Origin: a virus
IMG/VR virus record: IMGVR_UViG_3300042673_001035
Span: 52,681 to 116,680 of that record
Strand: one strand, 5' to 3'
Length of the DNA: 64,000 bases
A model generated the notes under the pieces. It saw only the letters and a program-made list of their open reading frames with translations. It did no database searches and was not told the origin of the DNA. Below, in pieces: positions 42,957 through 52,810 of the stretch. Numbering within the stretch: position 1 is the first letter of the stretch; every line of letters starts with the position of its first letter. Made by a program: the position numbers and the translations under genes.

Positions 42957-43717
42957 TAAATAAATTCCAATTGTCTTGTTATAAAATCATAGTCAAATGT
43001 AATTGGATTATTATCAATATCATATCTCAAATTACAACTACATCCGTTAAATGTATAAATATCACCCCACTCATCTTTATATGGAATAGTTCCCCAACCA
43101 TATGCTTCGTGAATATGTCCTGCAAAGTGTAAATGTGGTTTTACTTCTTGTAATCTATGATATAAATCTTCACAACCTACTTTTTGATTTGTATTAGATG
43201 CTCTATCACAATAACCGTGAATTGGTGTATGTGTAATTACGATATCGGTGTCCGTTGGTATTCGATTCCATATTTCATTTATATCATGTCCCCTATCTTT
43301 ATTGAAGGCCCAACCGTATCCAAAACTAGGACTGATAGGTGAACCCCATATTTTAATATTGTCAAATTCAATAGAACTATTCTCTAAATAAAATACATCA
43401 TCATCTAATTCGGATATTAAACCAACTAACCAATTCGGTTTACCATCAACGGGTGGTTCAAAATATTGTTTCCTATCAAAGTGGACTGACTTATCTCTAA
43501 ATAAAACATCACTATCGAATGGTAAATCGTGGTTACCTGCAATGAATATCTTAAATCTATAAGGTTGTTTACTAAACCATTTGATAAAATCTTCAACTTC
43601 GTGCTTTCTGCCAATTGAACTTATGTCTCCACTATGTATTAAAATATCCCCACCAGGTGTAATTACCTTATTGTGTTTATTATGTGTATCACTAATGTGC
43701 GTTATTCTCATCTTCAT
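42956..43717 (-). CDS. calcineurin-like metallophosphoesterase
   Basis: ISDTH, HSGD, AGNHD, ITHTP, GHIHE. Confidence 0.9.
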   Translation of the reverse strand: MKMRITHISDTHNKHNKVITPGGDILIHSGDISSIGRKHEVEDFIKWFSKQPYRFKIFIAGNHDLPFDSDVLFRDKSVHFDRKQYFEPPVDGKPNWLVGLISELDDDVFYLENSSIEFDNIKIWGSPISPSFGYGWAFNKDRGHDINEIWNRIPTDTDIVITHTPIHGYCDRASNTNQKVGCEDLYHRLQEVKPHLHFAGHIHEAYGWGTIPYKDEWGDIYTFNGCSCNLRYDIDNNPITFDYDFITRQLEFI

Positions 43718-44081
43718 AAAATCCTTCTTTATTTCCTATTAATTGGTATGCATCCCATAATGCATCTAATGCAATTTCAAATTTTTCTTTTAAGTCATTT
43801 TCATTATCGGTTAGTGGATGTTCTAATAGATGTGAATTTATATTATCCATTATTACATGTGTCCTATCCATTAATTCTAAATAATGTCCAGCATTAATCG
43901 AATTTTTTCTTTGTTTCTTTGATGACATCTGATATTGATTTATTTGGGTTGTCTTTCATTATTCTTAAGGCCTTAACAATGAATTGACTTAATTGATTTT
44001 TTTTATCAATCTTTTTAATTAATTCATTAAGAGTGTCCAAATCTTCATAGAATTTTCCCATATTGTTGTTTTATTAGATAT

Positions 44082-44113
44082 GTAAGATACGAAAAAAACC
44101 CCACATTACCAAA
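44082..44113 (-). promoter_or_regulatory. phage promoter copy
   Basis: TTTGGTAATG...TCGTATCTTAC. Confidence 0.7.
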
Positions 44114-44149
44114 ACTATTTTTAGTAACATTGGGGTTCAATATATTTTG

Positions 44150-44234
44150 CGGAAGCTCAGGGATTCGAACCCCAGATACCTTTCAGTATGACGGTTTTCA
44201 AGACCGTTCCATTCAACCACTCTGGCAAGCTTCC
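44150..44234 (-). tRNA. tRNA-Ser(TGA)
   Basis: Cloverleaf with long variable arm; ACGGT-CT TGA AA-ACCGT. Confidence 0.92.
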
Positions 44235-44241
44235 TATTCTA

Positions 44242-44514
44242 CTAATAGATATGTGTTTCTTCGTTTCTGAAAGTATCTGCATCTAAAAAAGTATTATCCG
44301 ATTGTCTCCTTCTAGCCTCTTCAGCTTTTTTATACCAACTAATCCAAGTCATACCAAAATCAATTGGTGCTAATAACCAAGCTAATGCAACAACCATAAT
44401 GGCATCCAAACCAGGATTTAATCCAATCATACCATCATTATATCTTTCTTGATATCGGGTGAATAATTGATAGAAACAATAGATAACACAAATAACATAA
44501 TAAGTCCAAAACAT
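44242..44514 (-). CDS. small membrane protein
   Basis: Two hydrophobic segments; promoter copy at 44535-44568 directly upstream. Confidence 0.6.
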   Translation of the reverse strand: MFWTYYVICVIYCFYQLFTRYQERYNDGMIGLNPGLDAIMVVALAWLLAPIDFGMTWISWYKKAEEARRRQSDNTFLDADTFRNEETHIY

Positions 44515-44575
44515 AATTTTCTTTTTTAATTTTAATAAATATACGATAATATTTTTATATTACCAAATTTTTTTG

Positions 44576-44649
44576 TGGGAAAGACAGGGCTCGAACCTGT
44601 GACCTCAAAATTATGAGTTTTTTGCTCTAACCAACTGAGCTACATTCCC
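44576..44649 (-). tRNA. tRNA-CAT (elongator Met or lysidine Ile2)
   Basis: Cloverleaf; CT CAT AA loop; G1-C72 paired. Confidence 0.88.
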
Positions 44650-44743
44650 TAAAGAAAATAAGCAGGTGTGGAGTCACCTACCTATTTTAGTGAATGAGAA
44701 ACATCTGTCTCTCTTTGTGGCTCTATCACTTTAGCCCATAAGG

Positions 44744-44851
44744 TGCCGGTGGAGGGATTGATTACCCACACGATGTCCATTTCGGATACATCACCTTTCT
44801 AGAATTACGGGACGTCTAATAACTGTACAATTATCATTCCGCCACACCGGC
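44744..44851 (-). ncRNA. tRNA-Leu-like RNA with D-loop hairpin insertion and degenerate anticodon/T loops
   Basis: Acceptor GCCGGTG/CACCGGC-A; TGGCGGAAT...AGACG D-arm flanks; long variable arm; T-loop TAATCAAT. Confidence 0.6.
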
Positions 44852-44857
44852 ATATTG

Positions 44858-44929
44858 TAGTCCGTCGTGGAATCGAACCACGAACATCTCATTAGAAGTG
44901 AGAAGTTATATCCATTTAACTAACAGACC
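44858..44929 (-). tRNA. tRNA-Arg(TCT)
   Basis: TCTCA-CT TCT AA-TGAGA. Confidence 0.9.
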
Positions 44930-45171
44930 ATTAGTTGTTCTAACTTGCAAGTTTACTCTTAACATTTCTTTCTCTACAACGACTGAACTTAATCACATTT
45001 GTAGTCCGAATGTTGCTTTGGGTAATTACTCCATGCATCTATGTAACTCTATATACCTTACCTTGTCAATAGGTGTGTTAAGTGTATAGAACAACTTTAA
45101 AACACAATCACCTCACATCTTCAGGTGTCCAAATTGCCGAGCTAATTGCATAACAATTTAATTGTGTTTTG

Positions 45172-45245
45172 CGGACGGGACGGGACTCGAACCCGCGACC
45201 TTCGGCGTGACAAGCCGACATTCTAACCAACTGAACTACCCATCC
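45172..45245 (-). tRNA. tRNA-Asp(GTC)
   Basis: TCGGC-TT GTC AC-GCCGA. Confidence 0.93.
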
Positions 45246-45251
45246 AATTTG

Positions 45252-45324
45252 AGCCCAAGATAAGAATCGAACTTACGACCTACTGATTACAAATCAGTTG
45301 CTCTACCAGCTGAGCTACTCGGGC
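45252..45324 (-). tRNA. tRNA-Thr(TGT)
   Basis: ACTGA-TT TGT AA-TCAGT. Confidence 0.93.
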
Positions 45325-45329
45325 TATTG

Positions 45330-45401
45330 TACTCAGTACGGGATTCGAACCCGTATTACATCCGTGAAAGGGATGTGACCTAACCCTTAGTCGAACTGAG
45401 C
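45330..45401 (-). tRNA. tRNA-Glu(TTC)
   Basis: CATCC-CT TTC AC-GGATG. Confidence 0.92.
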
Positions 45402-45533
45402 ATTAAAGGAAAGTAAAAGATGGGTGCGTGGACATTTACTTTTATGATTGGCTTTACTAACCGGTAGTAGTATATTAGATTTTCACTAACTCGATTTAGC
45501 GGACTACTTTTGTTCCCAATCAACCTTATAAAT

Positions 45534-45566
45534 TAAATATACGATAAATAATTTACTTTACCAAAT
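45534..45566 (-). promoter_or_regulatory. internal promoter within the tRNA array
   Basis: TTTGGTAAAG...TCGTATATTTA. Confidence 0.75.
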
Positions 45567-45570
45567 ATTG

Positions 45571-45645
45571 TACCCGTAATAGGACTCGAACCTATAATTG
45601 TATGGCTTCTAAGACCACTGCGTATGCCAATTCCGCCACACGGGT
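45571..45645 (-). tRNA. tRNA-Leu(TAG), short variable arm
   Basis: GTGGT-CT TAG AA-GCCAT; Leu-type D-arm GGCGGAATTGGCATACGC; 75 nt. Confidence 0.88.
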
Positions 45646-45647
45646 GT

Positions 45648-45722
45648 TGGGGTGTAAGGACGGTACCGACCCGTCTTATCCGGCTCCACAAACCGACGCA
45701 TCACCTTAATGCTTCAAACACC
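45648..45722 (-). tRNA. tRNA-His(GTG)
   Basis: TCGGT-TT GTG GA-GCCGG; G-1 and encoded CCA; atypical T-loop. Confidence 0.85.
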
Positions 45723-45727
45723 ATTTG

Positions 45728-45797
45728 AGGTCAATGTTGGAATCGAACCAACTCCATAAGATTTGCAGTCCCACCGGCCTCCACGACCAAACTGACC
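45728..45797 (-). tRNA. tRNA-Cys(GCA)
   Basis: TGGGA-CT GCA AA-TCTTA; U73. Confidence 0.85.
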
Positions 45798-45803
45798 ATA
45801 TAG

Positions 45804-45876
45804 TAGTCCTATTAGGAATCGAACCCAAACTAAAACATCCGTAGTGTTTCGTGCTATCCAATTACACCATAGAACT
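45804..45876 (-). tRNA. tRNA-Arg(ACG)
   Basis: AAACA-CT ACG GA-TGTTT. Confidence 0.88.
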
Positions 45877-45881
45877 AATTG

Positions 45882-45950
45882 CACGCAGTGAAGGAATTGA
45901 ACCCTCTCCTTTGGTTTTGGAGACCAATTGGCTGCCATAGCCTACCACGC
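45882..45950 (-). tRNA. tRNA-Trp(CCA)
   Basis: TTGGT-CT CCA AA-ACCAA. Confidence 0.87.
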
Positions 45951-45955
45951 ATTTG

Positions 45956-46029
45956 TTGGGAATGCAGGATTCGAACCTACGGCCTCTAGCTCCCAAAGCT
46001 AGCGCGATACCTGACTACGCTAATTCCCA
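45956..46029 (-). tRNA. tRNA-Pro(TGG)
   Basis: CTAGC-TT TGG GA-GCTAG. Confidence 0.92.
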
Positions 46030-46035
46030 TTTTTG

Positions 46036-46106
46036 TTATTCGGGCTGGATTCGAACCAGAACTAATTGCACCAAAAACAATTGTGCTACCGTTACACCAC
46101 CGAACA
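46036..46106 (-). tRNA. tRNA-Gln(TTG)
   Basis: ATTGT-TT TTG GT-GCAAT. Confidence 0.88.
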
Positions 46107-46111
46107 ATTTG

Positions 46112-46183
46112 AGCAGATGAGAGGAATCGAACCTCCGTCTCCTACTTGGAAGGAAGGAGTAATGGCCATTATACGACATCTGC
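46112..46183 (-). tRNA. tRNA-Gly(TCC)
   Basis: CCTTC-CT TCC AA-GTAGG; U73. Confidence 0.88.
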
Positions 46184-46188
46184 TTTTG

Positions 46189-46260
46189 CGCTTTCTGAGA
46201 ATTACGATATCCCGGCCCCATCATTAACAGTGATGTGCTCTACCTCTGAGCTAAGAAAGC
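46189..46260 (-). tRNA. tRNA-Asn(GTT), atypical T-arm
   Basis: CATCA-CT GTT AA-TGATG; T-loop ATCGTAA. Confidence 0.82.
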
Positions 46261-46264
46261 ATAT

Positions 46265-46300
46265 AAACAAAAAAACCCCTAACTTTTCAGTCAGAGGTTT
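46265..46300 (-). terminator. intrinsic terminator (candidate attenuator) directly upstream of tRNA-Asn
   Basis: AAACCTCTGACT-GAAA-AGTTAGGGGTTT followed by TTTTGTTT. Confidence 0.85.
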
Positions 46301-46328
46301 CTTAATATTATTCAAAAATTATTACATT

Positions 46329-46418
46329 TTATCCTACATCCGTATCCTCTAACTGCACGAAATTGCCATCCCAATTTTGATTAGGTTGGCTACAAAGTGT
46401 ATGTGTTAGAGTTCTCAT
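46329..46418 (-). CDS. putative leader peptide MRTLTHTLCSQPNQNWDGNFVQLEDTDVG
   Basis: 29-codon ORF ending ~28 nt before the terminator; contains CAGTTAGAGG, complementary to the terminator 5' arm. Confidence 0.7.
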   Translation of the reverse strand: MRTLTHTLCSQPNQNWDGNFVQLEDTDVG

Positions 46419-46528
46419 TGTTAATATATATCTAATTCTTTTATTTAATATTCAAAAAGTAATTTAATTTCAAAATACGCCATCCAAGTCATGCTCTGGT
46501 TAATACAAGCCTCATTAAATTACTATTG

Positions 46529-46599
46529 AGCGGGACTAAAGAATTGAACTTCAACTTCCCCCCTGGAAGAGGGGTGTGCTACCGTTACACTAATTCCGC
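46529..46599 (-). tRNA. tRNA-Gly(TCC), second copy
   Basis: CCCCT-CT TCC AG-GGGGG; acceptor GCGGAAT/GTCCCGC. Confidence 0.8.
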
Positions 46600-46607
46600 T
46601 TATAAAT

Positions 46608-47472
46608 AGATGAGAATACTCTATTTGGTGAACCAGCTTTAGAAAGATTATTTGTTTCCTTCCGTTTCCACTACCTTTTGAGTAGTACCAATTCAATGTG
46701 GATGATTTTAGACTATCAGTCTTTAAGTTGCCGATTACTCTCTACTTACTTATTTTCTTCAAGCCTCGCAGCCTGATTAATTCTTGCGGAATTAGAAACC
46801 TTTCGATAGAATCACAGACCTCTTGCGGAGGTATCGTGGCTAAGAACATCTCTTAACTATGTACACACCTTTCATCTGCAACTGGTAAACACTCATGCTT
46901 AATTTTTAAATTGTAGTTTTTACACCTTAGTAAAAATTGAGTTTTAGTTTATAGAATCATTCAGGTAGTGGTTTACCACTAGCTCCCCCATCTTTTGAAC
47001 GAGAGAATACTAAACTACCCGATGCAATATCCCTACTGCGGTTTTTTAAGTCATCTTCATTTATAGGTTTTGGTAAACTCTATAAAAGGATGGTAACAAC
47101 ACCACTTGTACACTATCTTATCTTGCGTCCTTTCGGATGGCTTGATGTTAAGATAACTTTGAAACTGAATACCGCAATGATGTAGAGGGATTAAGTCTAC
47201 ACTTCTTACTGATATTCTATGGGTTATTCTTATTGTTGTTCCCAACTCAGTCGGAGTATCTATACTACCCCAACTATTCAAACTCTTCCGATATAGTGTT
47301 ACCCTTTCGTACAAAGCTCAAATAATATCCCACTTGCCTACTCAAGCTAGTCTCTCCTTACGGGGAGAGTAGCCGCAGATGTATCACTTAATACACCCAC
47401 TTTATCCTACTTTCGTAGTTTATTTGACCACCATAGGCGGCGGTTGTTTACTATGTGAGACGAACTCACTAT
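46608..47472 (-). ncRNA. large structured ncRNA, probably GOLLD-type
   Basis: ~865 nt, GC-richer, no credible ORF; many GNRA hairpins on the minus strand; promoter at 47515-47548; adjacent to tRNAs. Confidence 0.7.
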
Positions 47473-47514
47473 GTAAAATATTTTAATCTTTAAAAGAACT
47501 TCTTTTTGGTTTTA

Positions 47515-47652
47515 ATAAATATACGAATAATTTTTTATTCTGCCAAATTTATTTAAAACTTTTTTTTGTAAATTTGATAACGAGTATCTTTCATCACCTA
47601 TTGTTTCTCATTTACTTATGTAATATACGAAACATTTTTTACACTACCAAAT
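47515..47652 (-). promoter_or_regulatory. two tandem promoter copies
   Basis: 47515-47548 and 47620-47652. Confidence 0.75.
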
Positions 47653-47744
47653 TTATTTTCAAAAAACTTTTTAAGATAATCGGTGTCCGGCTTTAACACA
47701 TAGTCGGTTTTATTACTATTGGCTTCAACCAATCATCTTATTTG

Positions 47745-47816
47745 TTGCAGGAGAAGGATTCGAACCTCCGACCTTGTGGTTATGAGCCACGTGAGCTACC
47801 TCTGCTCTATCCTGCG
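47745..47816 (-). tRNA. tRNA-fMet(CAT), initiator-like
   Basis: C1:A72 mismatch; CT CAT AA loop; own promoter at 47826-47858. Confidence 0.88.
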
Positions 47817-47867
47817 ATATTAAATGTAATATACGATAACTTTTTCAAATTACCAAATATATTTTTT

Positions 47868-48234
47868 TGGTGGAGATGAGGGGAATCGAACCCCTGTCTT
47901 ACAAAGAACTAATAATATCAGCATTTCACACGTTTAGGATAAAGTTTAATCTTATTAACTTTCCAAAATAATTGAGGTCGGATGGTTAGTCCAACTTTCC
48001 ACCAACTGATTTAAGGTTTCAGTAAACTCATCTCACATTCTATTTAAAGTCCCATGATGTGTACGGGATTGGTTAGGCTGCTACAGCGTAATCCATACCT
48101 ACAAATGCCATAAGGTCATTGTAAGTCATTGTTGACTTTTCGTCTTTTGTTGTTTTGCAAGTATTTAAAGACATTCATGCTTTGTCTACGTGTGATACTA
48201 CCATTTACATTGCAATCAAGTCCATGGCATCCCC
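47868..48234 (-). ncRNA. ssrA: tmRNA
   Basis: 5' GGGGATG; 3' T-arm plus CATCTCCACCA; tag ORF 48144-48073 DEKSTMTYNDLMAFVGMDYAVAA*. Confidence 0.92.
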
Positions 48235-48246
48235 AATTTGTTTACA

Positions 48247-48310
48247 CAATATACGATAAATATTTGATACTACCAAATAAATTTATAAATTGTTAATAAT
48301 CAATGAGTTA
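48247..48310 (-). promoter_or_regulatory. tmRNA promoter plus upstream 25-bp palindrome
   Basis: Promoter 48247-48278; palindrome 48286-48310. Confidence 0.75.
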
Positions 48311-48324
48311 TATATTATAAATAT

Positions 48325-48750
48325 TTATATTAATGTATTTTTATAAAGCTCAAAATCATCATCAAAATTTTCATAACATACTACTATTTCTTCATTTGGA
48401 TAAATATCTCTGGCTGCTATCATTTTATCTTTACCCAATTCAATAGAATTTGGATTATTACTATGATTTTGAAAAATCGAATGGTCACATGATGAATAAT
48501 AGTAATCTCCCTCTCTCCAAAAATATTTATCGATATGATTTTTTTGAAGTTCAGTTAGGGTTTCATATTTTTCTTTATGAACTTTTATATCAAATCCTTC
48601 AATAAATTGCCAAATTATGGTATTTTTTGGAATAAATTCTTCAGCAAATAAACCCAATCCTTTATTTAAAGACTCACCCAAATATGTTTTTATTAATAGC
48701 ATTTTATGTATTATTCCGTGTAATCCCAATTTGTATCGGATGGTCTCCAT
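48325..48750 (-). CDS. SET-domain protein
   Basis: GLGLFA..FIPK, FQNHSNNPN, AARDI...EEI...Y; start probably MLLIK. Confidence 0.85.
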   Translation of the reverse strand: METIRYKLGLHGIIHKMLLIKTYLGESLNKGLGLFAEEFIPKNTIIWQFIEGFDIKVHKEKYETLTELQKNHIDKYFWREGDYYYSSCDHSIFQNHSNNPNSIELGKDKMIAARDIYPNEEIVVCYENFDDDFELYKNTLI

Positions 48751-52294: not shown

Positions 52295-52810
52295 TTAGAA
52301 GTTTCTAATAGCCCTGTAGAATATATTTGCGGTTTTTGCTGGCGTTCTCCAAGAACCATCAAATAAAAATATAGCATATGCATTTGTACTATTAAATTGG
52401 GTTGAAGACCAGAACTCAACTTCACCACCAAATCCGCCAATAGCATTTCTATTTACATATAATTGATACAACTCGTCGTAACTTGGTAAGTACCAATCAG
52501 AATAACCTCCTTCTGTTAAATCGCTAGCTAGTTTAGCAGCAATATTGCTTTGATTACAAGCATTTACAATTGCAACTGTATTTGCTGCACCTGTACCTAT
52601 TGCAGTAGCTGTTGCTCCGGGAATGTCTGTACCTTCACATCCCCAATTACAATTTGAGCCTAATGATAATGTTGCTACTAAACCTGACGTACCTGTTGAA
52701 CCTCCTCCGTTTATATAAGCTATAACGCCACCTAATGCAGTTTGACCTATTGTATATGTTGGTGGTGGTACTTTTGATAAACTAAATCCGTTTGTAAATT
52801 CTATTGCCAT
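52295..52810 (-). CDS. DUF1566/Lcl-like domain protein
   Basis: GGYSDWYLPS.DEL, FWSST, RAIRNF. Confidence 0.75.
   Translation of the reverse strand: MAIEFTNGFSLSKVPPPTYTIGQTALGGVIAYINGGGSTGTSGLVATLSLGSNCNWGCEGTDIPGATATAIGTGAANTVAIVNACNQSNIAAKLASDLTEGGYSDWYLPSYDELYQLYVNRNAIGGFGGEVEFWSSTQFNSTNAYAIFLFDGSWRTPAKTANIFYRAIRNF

Follow-up and report, generated by a model that had tools for sequence, protein, structure and literature searches.

A probable leader-peptide attenuator between the GOLLD RNA and a tandem tRNA array in a phage genome

Organization of the locus

The DNA analyzed here, referred to as the window, is a 64,000-nucleotide stretch of IMG/VR virus record IMGVR_UViG_3300042673_001035 (positions 52,681 to 116,680 of a record of 116,680 bases, rated 52% complete); it contains 31% G+C and carries nearly all of its genes on the minus strand. 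On this strand, Rfam and ARAGORN place a tmRNA, a tRNA-Met, the GOLLD RNA, a tRNA-Gly, a 268-nt spacer, and an array of tRNA genes that begins with tRNA-Asn, in this order; all features of the locus described below lie on the minus strand and are numbered from the first letter of the window. The spacer, which is the subject of this study, is built by a 65-nt hairpin, followed by an open reading frame (ORF) of 29 codons, and then by a terminator hairpin. It is probably a ribosome-mediated leader-peptide transcription attenuator of the trp type, located between GOLLD and nine tRNA genes of this lake phage. An initial annotation made from the letters of the window had already proposed an attenuator, and that reading is supported by ORF conservation, pairing covariation, and leader composition, all of which gave positive results. 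The observed arrangement is real and far beyond chance.

The leader ORF spans 46418–46329 (29 codons and a TAA stop, MRTLTHTLCSQPNQNWDGNFVQLEDTDVG; known from the ORF list and from homologues), with the peptide originally proposed, and its stop codon lies 26–28 nt before the terminator hairpin. Codons 2–19 use only the 12 amino acids first listed (R, T, L, H, C, S, Q, P, N, W, D, and G), which include all nine isotypes of the downstream array. Only 1 of the 14,245 18-residue windows in the phage’s ORFs of at least 100 amino acids contains all nine isotypes, and 36 of the 14,245 lie wholly within the 14 amino acids for which the window has a tRNA. The accompanying claim that K, I, Y, and A are avoided holds for this peptide and for the tRNA set of the window, but does not extend to the leaders of relatives, where it proves lineage-specific: most of them have K at codon 2, I, Y, and A are found in many, and A is present in 24 of 44 leaders versus a tRNA-Ala in one array.

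The array gated by this element (46260–45570) comprises tRNA-Asn, Gly, Gln, Pro, Trp, Arg(ACG), Cys, His, and Leu(TAG), identified by Rfam, ARAGORN, a lowered threshold, and homology; the nine tandem genes are real by ARAGORN and Rfam. The weakest call is tRNA-His (29.2 bits in Rfam), which ARAGORN reports only at the lowered threshold. The first gene, tRNA-Asn(GTT) at 46260–46189, scores 50.8 bits in Rfam and is missed by ARAGORN because of its non-canonical T-loop, ATCGTAA instead of a TTCGAAT-like sequence; the same odd T-arm is kept in many relatives.

The switch is not the head of the RNA island, being preceded on the same strand by the tmRNA, tRNA-Met, GOLLD, and tRNA-Gly. A strongly conserved phage promoter motif, ATTTGGTA-N15-TCGTATATT, has about a dozen minus-strand copies in the window, and those around the locus start at 48276, 47856, 47650, 47546, 45564, and 44566. 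The last copies upstream of the switch found in the motif scan are two tandem ones (47650–47622 and 47546–47518), with TTGGTA/TTGGCA-17-TATATT inside the extended motif ATTTGGTA-N15-TCGTATATT, and the next one downstream (45564–45536) is an independent promoter for the distal tRNA genes (Glu, Thr, Asp, Arg, Met, and Ser). Between 47546 and 45564, the minus strand has no copy of the motif, in agreement with the earlier statement that none separates the terminator from the tRNA array; therefore, the Asn-to-Leu tRNAs can be reached only by transcripts begun before GOLLD. No copy was seen between the hairpin element and the leader ORF either, and a start there would not alter the model. A general sigma-70 promoter scan was uninformative (24 sites versus 23.8 expected), and one site across the leader ATG (46424–46396) was discarded as chance level.

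Conservation of the leader in related loci

Relatives were collected as 80 viral loci sharing a neighbouring protein, together with additional viral and metagenome loci matching terminator, peptide-start, and hairpin-core patterns. One hundred non-redundant stretches contain the hairpin core and at least 330 nt downstream: 86 share the layout of hairpin, short ORF, terminator, and tRNA, 9 carry the core in another context, and 5 are chance matches in G+C-rich DNA. An ATG-started ORF homologous to the leader, predicted from the initial annotation, is present in 85 of the 86 related fragments. The exception is L130, in which the ORF is lost and one tRNA gene is left before the next promoter motif; this metagenome locus is a natural deletion in which the terminator comes straight after the hairpin, and the leader and most of the array are absent together. 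When loci lacking the hairpin are included, the collection yields 73 distinct leader-plus-terminator sequences, which makes the design widespread in freshwater phage fragments. Short ORFs starting with MEFSFHT or MKSSYHT in four other loci (L011, L014, L017, and L034) were rejected as homologues; they lie antisense to a coding gene, with no tRNA nearby.

The 73 leaders fall into length classes of 22 (14 sequences), 26, 29 (12), 30 (20), 31, 38–40 (10), 43, and 51–53 (15) codons that differ by in-frame changes. The ORF of the window is an in-frame deletion form of the 52-codon version, of which the first ~18 and last 8 codons are kept. The C-terminal peptide varies among leaders (LEDTDVG, LEEASGW, LRDINKG, and others) while the stop codon stays in place. 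The ratio of non-synonymous to synonymous polymorphism (pN/pS) in frame is 0.44 in the 52-codon group (10 sequences) and 0.29 in the 29-codon group (8 sequences), versus 0.95–1.96 out of frame in these two groups (1.14 and 1.96 for the 29-codon group). In a public protein collection, the ORF appears in 56 protein clusters, none of which is named beyond ‘hypothetical protein’ or has a Pfam assignment. The coding bias of these two groups is indirect evidence that the leader ORF may be translated. The lack of a Shine-Dalgarno motif in front of it is to be expected, since such motifs precede only 3 of 74 ORFs of the phage; upstream regions are 55% A, and both features together suggest a Bacteroidota-type host.

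Mutually exclusive RNA pairings

A hairpin scan places an intrinsic terminator of 15 pairs with a GAAA loop at 46303–46269, including its T-run. Its 5′ arm (region 3, CCTCTGACT) occupies 46297–46289, and its 3′ arm (region 4, AGTTAGGGG) occupies 46284–46276, followed by seven T at 46275–46269. The strong terminator reported ahead of tRNA-Asn is thus present (hairpin at 46303–46270 with a T-run), but the gap to the tRNA is 8 nt and not ~4 nt. The predicted stability is −16.6 kcal/mol in the window and −14 to −20 kcal/mol in the 73 relatives. All 73 distinct leaders have an intrinsic terminator, with a stem of 11–16 base pairs (bp) and a run of at least five T, and in the relatives a tRNA always follows within a few nucleotides.

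Region 2, the antiterminator strand, was found as the complement of the terminator 5′ arm and corresponds to CAGTTAGAGG in codons 22–25 of the leader (46355–46346). As anticipated, CAGTTAGAGG pairs with CCTCTGACTG over 10 bp, with one G-U, and this helix appears in every transcript fold computed before the 3′ arm exists. Across leaders, region 2 is the best upstream complement of the 5′ arm, at 7–10 bp, and an automatic scan locates it 22–24 nt before the stop in all ORFs of at least 29 codons except L103, which has a complement of only 6 bp. The 22-codon forms have AGTTAGG directly after the stop; the automatic scan ranks this site first in 4 of the 14 sequences, whereas in the remaining 10 it prefers a site of the same length located 19 nt ahead of the stop.

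The compensatory changes expected of such a switch are found: the 5′ arm, region 2, and the 3′ arm co-vary, with double compensatory changes, and both-sided changes occur at three positions of the 2:3 pairing. In the common form, the 5′ arm CCTCT[GA]AC is matched by region 2 GTTAGAGG and 3′ arm GTTAGGGG. Three variants change in concert: a 5′ arm CCCTTAAC occurs with GTTAAGGG as both region 2 and 3′ arm, replacing Glu with Arg in the peptide; CCCTAAC occurs with GTTAGGG in both places, replacing Glu with Gly; and CCCTGAC occurs with region 2 GTCAGGG and 3′ arm GTCGGGG, replacing Leu with Ser. Since these replacements preserve pairing, amino-acid changes in region 2 are evidently accepted where pairing is kept.

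Duplex energies over 52 haplotypes point in the same direction. Matched partners average −11.95 for the 2:3 duplex (permuted, −9.74 ± 0.27), −9.38 for 1:2 (permuted, −7.01), and −15.86 for 3:4 (permuted, −12.93), and in each case the matched value was reached by 0 of 5000 permutations, in statistics that ignore kinship. RNAalifold on a MAFFT alignment of the 73 leaders recovered only three pairs, a consequence of one-base shifts of the arms from haplotype to haplotype; covariation was therefore counted in position-anchored tables. In the anchored table, 12 leaders of the 30-codon class were set 5 nt too early (rows GTTGTTAG), which explains part of the mispairs at positions 5–8, and L103 was left out.

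A third strand, region 1 (CTCTAAC, codons 3–5, 46411–46405), is complementary to region 2 and is a candidate anti-antiterminator. It is the best region 2 complement in most leaders, at 7–11 bp and at +7 to +10 of the ORF. At codons 3–6 it has the form CT[CT]TAAC, replaced by TTGAC exactly where region 2 has GTCA (L031 and L131). The 1:2 pairing signal is not separable from that of a 1:4 pairing. In folds of the window leader, 2:3 forms before region 4 exists; with a ribosome on the last codon, 1:2 and the terminator form; with a ribosome at codon 10 or 14, 2:3 persists.

Leader content follows the tRNA array

For each relative, tRNAs were called in the 3 kb past the terminator with ARAGORN at a lowered threshold, supplemented by homology fill-in; the end of the first array was reached in 48 of the 73 loci, giving 44 distinct leader/array combinations. 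The expectation that leader composition tracks array content is borne out by presence agreement, by independent pairs, and by isotype coverage. Presence or absence of an amino acid in the leader and of its tRNA in the array agrees in 619 of 880 comparisons, versus 535 ± 12 when arrays are permuted over all loci and 590.6 ± 5.6 when they are permuted within leader-length classes; 619 was reached by 0 of 10,000 permutations in either test. Counted over the 44 loci as present in both, in the leader only, in the array only, and in neither, the values are 15/2/0/27 for F, 15/4/0/25 for V, 13/4/1/26 for M, and 15/15/0/14 for K. The association is weaker for C, I, P, and Y (p 0.01–0.03) and for Q (p 0.07), and no association was found for G, D, E, A, and S in these loci.

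Shared ancestry was addressed with a tree built from flanking sequence outside the trait (125 nt upstream, the stop-to-terminator interval, and tRNA-Trp). Among phylogenetically independent pairs, leader and array change in the same direction in 27.7, in opposite directions in 6.5, and show no change in 45.7, with a median one-sided sign p of 1.6e-4. Coverage is high: a mean of 96.9% of the isotypes in the first array is represented among the codons before region 2, and 33 of 44 loci are fully covered, versus 63.6 ± 2.1% and 0.95 fully covered loci for random length-matched segments of the phage’s proteins. If the leader segment is cut off four codons earlier, coverage is 87.4% versus 58.4% at random, and full coverage remains in only 5 of 44 loci, a number equalled by the maximum of 2000 random draws.

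Individual loci illustrate the relationship. The L183 leader is devoid of Q and P, and its array lacks tRNAs for Asn, Gly, Gln, and Pro; in L122, QP is changed to IT, and tRNAs for Gly, Gln, and Pro are missing from the array. L182 and L198 have NQIWI and a tRNA-Ile, where the window, which has no tRNA-Ile, reads NQNWD. Leader codons agree well with the encoded anticodons for Val, Thr, Ser(GCT/ACT), and Pro. The leader does not contain the tandem repeat of a single regulatory codon.

A caveat attached to the original proposal was that the leader codons AGC and GGC are not read by the encoded Ser(TGA) and Gly(TCC). For AGC, close relatives encode a cognate tRNA-Ser that the window has lost; for GGC, the caveat stands, the cognate codon of Gly(TCC) being used in just 6 of 31 loci, with GGC or GGT in the rest. 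The tRNA-Ser in question (GCT, or ACT/A34 by ARAGORN) is positioned between His and Leu in many relatives, such as L162, L097, and L185; in the window the gene is gone and the AGC codon of the leader is kept.

Proposed mechanism and alternative explanations

According to the attenuator model, transcripts would start at the GOLLD promoters 47650/47546 and pass through GOLLD, tRNA-Gly, the hairpin, and the 29-codon leader. Pairing of region 3 with region 4 would stop transcription 8 nt before tRNA-Asn; alternatively, region 2, in the terminal part of the leader ORF, could capture region 3 and allow read-through. Region 1, in codons 3–5, may sequester region 2. Slow movement or stalling of the ribosome between regions 1 and 2 would leave region 2 free to form 2:3, and transcription would proceed into the tRNA genes; a ribosome that reaches the stop, or the absence of one, would favour 1:2 and 3:4 and, hence, termination. 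The leader presents about one codon for each amino acid of the gated array, with a set that changes with the array in relatives, and a shortage of any such tRNA would be expected to yield more array transcript. Since the leader set mirrors the array and changes with it, the switch is most likely a negative feedback on tRNA supply.

More tentatively, the element can be viewed as a phage-encoded tRNA homeostat, with a ‘pangram’ leader that samples nearly every gated isotype and co-evolves with the gated block, such that loss of any one of these tRNAs would let transcription begun at the strong GOLLD promoters continue into replacement tRNAs. We give this extended proposal less credence than the attenuator itself; possible triggers are a codon-usage mismatch, host shut-off, or a host tRNA-cleaving defence, and the initial annotation had put forward starvation and host anticodon nucleases as candidates.

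Several observations weigh against the attenuator and its tRNA-sensing role. The full-length window leader has a minimum-energy fold with 2:3 nested in 1:4, that is, antiterminated, so the off state would depend on kinetics; the off state of the trp leader is likewise kinetic. In L101, L129, and the 22-codon forms, the 1:2 pairing is weak, and footprint arithmetic suggests that, in ORFs of at least 29 codons, a ribosome bound at the stop would shield no more than the final few bases of region 2. In-frame pN/pS is not favoured in the 30- and 22-codon groups (0.78 versus 0.85/0.64 and 0.71 versus 0.84/0.62, respectively), and loci were gathered by hairpin core or peptide N-terminus, which makes the family counts conditional on those motifs. 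On the side of composition, F, K, V, and M move as a block, representing few joint events with ~3–4 independent pairs each, and without them the independent pairs fall to ~15.8 in the same direction versus 6.4 in the opposite one; moreover, the marker tree is short, about 270 nt, and was obtained by a quick search. As for Gly(TCC), the codon match fails for Arg(ACG), whose cognate codon is used in 7 of 39 loci, mostly replaced by AGA, and the match for Leu(TAG) is partial (18 of 29). A, D, E, T, S, and K occur in leaders without a first-array tRNA, and four loci (L172, L135, L006, and L134) keep Q, P, I, or Y in the leader when the array has no such tRNA. Finally, contigs from RNA libraries provide almost no cover of the leader and no usable cover of the tRNAs.

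Some of these points would be accommodated if the same RNA switch sensed general translation capacity or a nascent-peptide arrest, with the likeness to the array being secondary. Here, either the conserved N-terminal peptide M-K/R-x-L-x-L-H-T-x-C/Y-x-x-P-...-W-x-G would stall the ribosome or any slowing would open the gate. Consistent with this idea, the H, T, P, W, and G positions are kept across length classes with synonymous variation at the Thr and Pro codons, codons for Gly and Arg(ACG) are mismatched, several leader amino acids have no array tRNA, and, in the published excerpts on antibiotic-sensing leader attenuators, those leaders work through arrest. Yet leader content changes with the array both within length classes and in independent pairs, and the conserved positions themselves are replaced where the tRNA is absent (H to Q in L128, which has no tRNA-His; QP to IT in L122, without tRNA-Gln and tRNA-Pro). 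We regard an arrest or capacity sensor as unlikely, though it deserves serious consideration. Another proposal is that the ORF encodes a small phage protein with its own job, with the hairpin being simply the end of the GOLLD-ORF unit and the tRNAs arising from constitutive leak-through. Such a protein would account for purifying selection in the 52-codon forms (pN/pS 0.44), for the ORF being predicted by gene callers in 56 protein clusters, and for GOLLD lying far above downstream RNA in RNA libraries, in which tRNAs and short mRNAs are poorly captured. It is difficult to reconcile with a peptide whose middle 23 codons are dispensable, as seen in the 29- and 22-codon forms, which accepts radical substitutions where terminator pairing is kept, and whose C-terminus varies while the distance from stop to region 2 is kept; it also gives no reason for the composition to follow the array, and we consider it very improbable.

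Least likely of all, in our estimate, is a translation-independent RNA switch, in which a factor, tRNA, or metabolite is bound by the upstream hairpin and the ORF is incidental. The conservation of a 65-nt hairpin with an invariant core just upstream, and the 30- and 22-codon groups that have no clear coding signal, would fit such a device; however, L010 has the ORF, the switch, and the terminator but no hairpin, nine loci carry the hairpin core but no leader, numerous in-frame length changes have left the ORF open in 85 of 86 fragments, and no T-box or other riboswitch family is detected at E ≤ 1. Ribosome-mediated attenuation is thus the explanation we favour.

Neighbouring RNAs and transcript evidence

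The 65-nt hairpin at 46523–46459, defined by alignment and anchored counts, has a near-invariant core (...TTAACCNGAGCATGACTTG...) enclosed by a closing stem of 10–11 bp. This stem is paired in 16–21 of 21 distinct arm pairs per position and displays both-sided changes, for instance at the innermost pair (T-A in 7, C-G in 14); these counts were made with anchors, and RNAalifold on the hairpin alignment missed the closing stem. No Rfam family matches the hairpin at E ≤ 1. The core is also found in nine metagenome loci (L142, L146, L147, L157, L178, L189, L213, L219, and L226) where, enclosed by a different closing stem, it precedes another structured RNA with no leader.

GOLLD (RF02032) is detected with 281.5 bits versus a gathering score of 150 (E 1.9e-80, model positions 1–416 of 416). 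It spans 47497–46607, with the conserved 3′ domain at 47022–46607 assigned by Rfam and the 5′ limit taken from RNA-library contig cover. In each of the 50 loci that have 900 nt or more of upstream sequence, a homologue of the 3′ domain ends 151–452 nt before the leader ATG, and a tRNA lies between GOLLD and the leader in 12 of these 50. In the window, this position is occupied by tRNA-Gly(TCC) (46599–46529; ARAGORN and Rfam), located between GOLLD and the switch and upstream of the terminator.

Contigs from four freshwater and river metatranscriptomes cover 46610–47497 with word depths of hundreds to thousands: GOLLD is an abundant RNA whose cover ends just before tRNA-Gly. A single 151-nt contig of depth 2 from library X15 aligns to 46405–46270, its end falling at the base of the terminator stem and 15 of its letters remaining unaligned, which is too thin to count. 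Metatranscriptome contigs show neither ends nor levels of transcripts, tRNAs and short unstable mRNAs are poorly captured, and libraries can hold DNA; contig cover neither favours nor contradicts the switch.

Further upstream, tRNA-Met (47816–47745; Rfam and ARAGORN) is preceded by a phage-encoded tmRNA (48234–47868; RF00023, 79.8 bits), which has its own copy of the promoter motif at 48276 and is not called by ARAGORN. Downstream of the nine-tRNA array, the minus strand encodes the distal tRNAs Glu, Thr, Asp, Arg, Met, and Ser. Directly after the promoter copy at 45564 and before tRNA-Glu, a conserved non-coding stretch at ~45402–45530, starting with AAGGTTGATTGGG, recurs in distant relatives, namely L130 and the nine loci with the hairpin core in another context; it looks like a small structured RNA and has no Rfam match at E ≤ 1. 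A search of phage GenBank sequences with 44000–48300 found no annotated relative, only matches of tRNA length.

Relation to known systems and implications

Leader-peptide transcription attenuators are classically represented by the enterobacterial amino-acid operon leaders trpL, hisL, leuL, thrL, and pheL. The element described here resembles trpL-type leaders in having a short ORF ahead of the regulated genes, a terminator, a 2:3 antiterminator that excludes it, a candidate 1:2 pairing near the ORF start, a stop codon beside region 2, and an ORF rich in residues related to the products. It differs in that its targets are tRNA genes and not biosynthetic enzymes, in carrying about one codon for each of 4–16 isotypes in place of a single-codon run, and in being phage-encoded, inside a non-coding RNA operon downstream of GOLLD. 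The ilvGMEDA and ilvBN leaders are multivalent, responding to Leu, Val, and Ile, and are similar in that one leader senses several amino acids, as is proposed here; however, they use clustered codons for three related amino acids, as opposed to nearly the whole isotype set of an array, in an array-dependent manner. T-box riboswitches bind one uncharged tRNA directly and need no ORF. They share with the role proposed for the present element the sensing of tRNA status through a terminator/antiterminator choice and the control of translation-apparatus genes, but differ by the leader ORF found here, and Rfam detects no T-box. Neither T-box nor any Rfam leader family matches at E ≤ 1 over 43500–48500, and the spacer (46261–46528) has only a chance-level match, to Rev39 5′UTR (16.5 bits versus a gathering score of 88).

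The drug-sensing attenuators of vmlR, msrD, and yxjB, as portrayed in the excerpts available, act through a ribosome that stalls on a short leader ORF and thereby disables a terminator; they are sensors of translation trouble, as the present switch would be. In those accounts, stalling requires both an antibiotic and a particular nascent peptide, and it is a resistance gene that is controlled.

To our knowledge, the regulation of phage tRNA genes is largely unknown, and leader-peptide attenuation is known for amino-acid operons and a few synthetase operons, not for tRNA genes. Full-text searches of the openly accessible literature returned no account of tRNA genes controlled by a leader-peptide attenuator. 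GOLLD adjoins tRNA islands in phages and prophages and may carry tRNAs in its linker, according to the portions of the literature at hand (Kretsch et al., 10.1101/2024.12.08.627333; the mycobacterial genome paper PMC6582537). Neither an ORF nor a terminator is mentioned in the same portions, nor any regulatory connection of GOLLD to the tRNAs, and the word ‘terminator’ occurs 0 times in the available text of the cryo-EM preprint by Kretsch et al. (10.1101/2024.12.08.627333).

The proposed mechanism is classical, whereas the target, the pan-isotype leader, and the linkage to GOLLD are new. The arrangement provides a first functional link for the neighbourhood of the GOLLD RNA and, if the homeostat reading is correct, GOLLD, the switch, and the array would form one regulated module. 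A leader that covers multiple isotypes and tracks its array would then represent a new kind of decoding-capacity sensor and a compact, tunable part for sensing tRNA supply, and it would offer a testable reason why phages differ in their tRNA sets.

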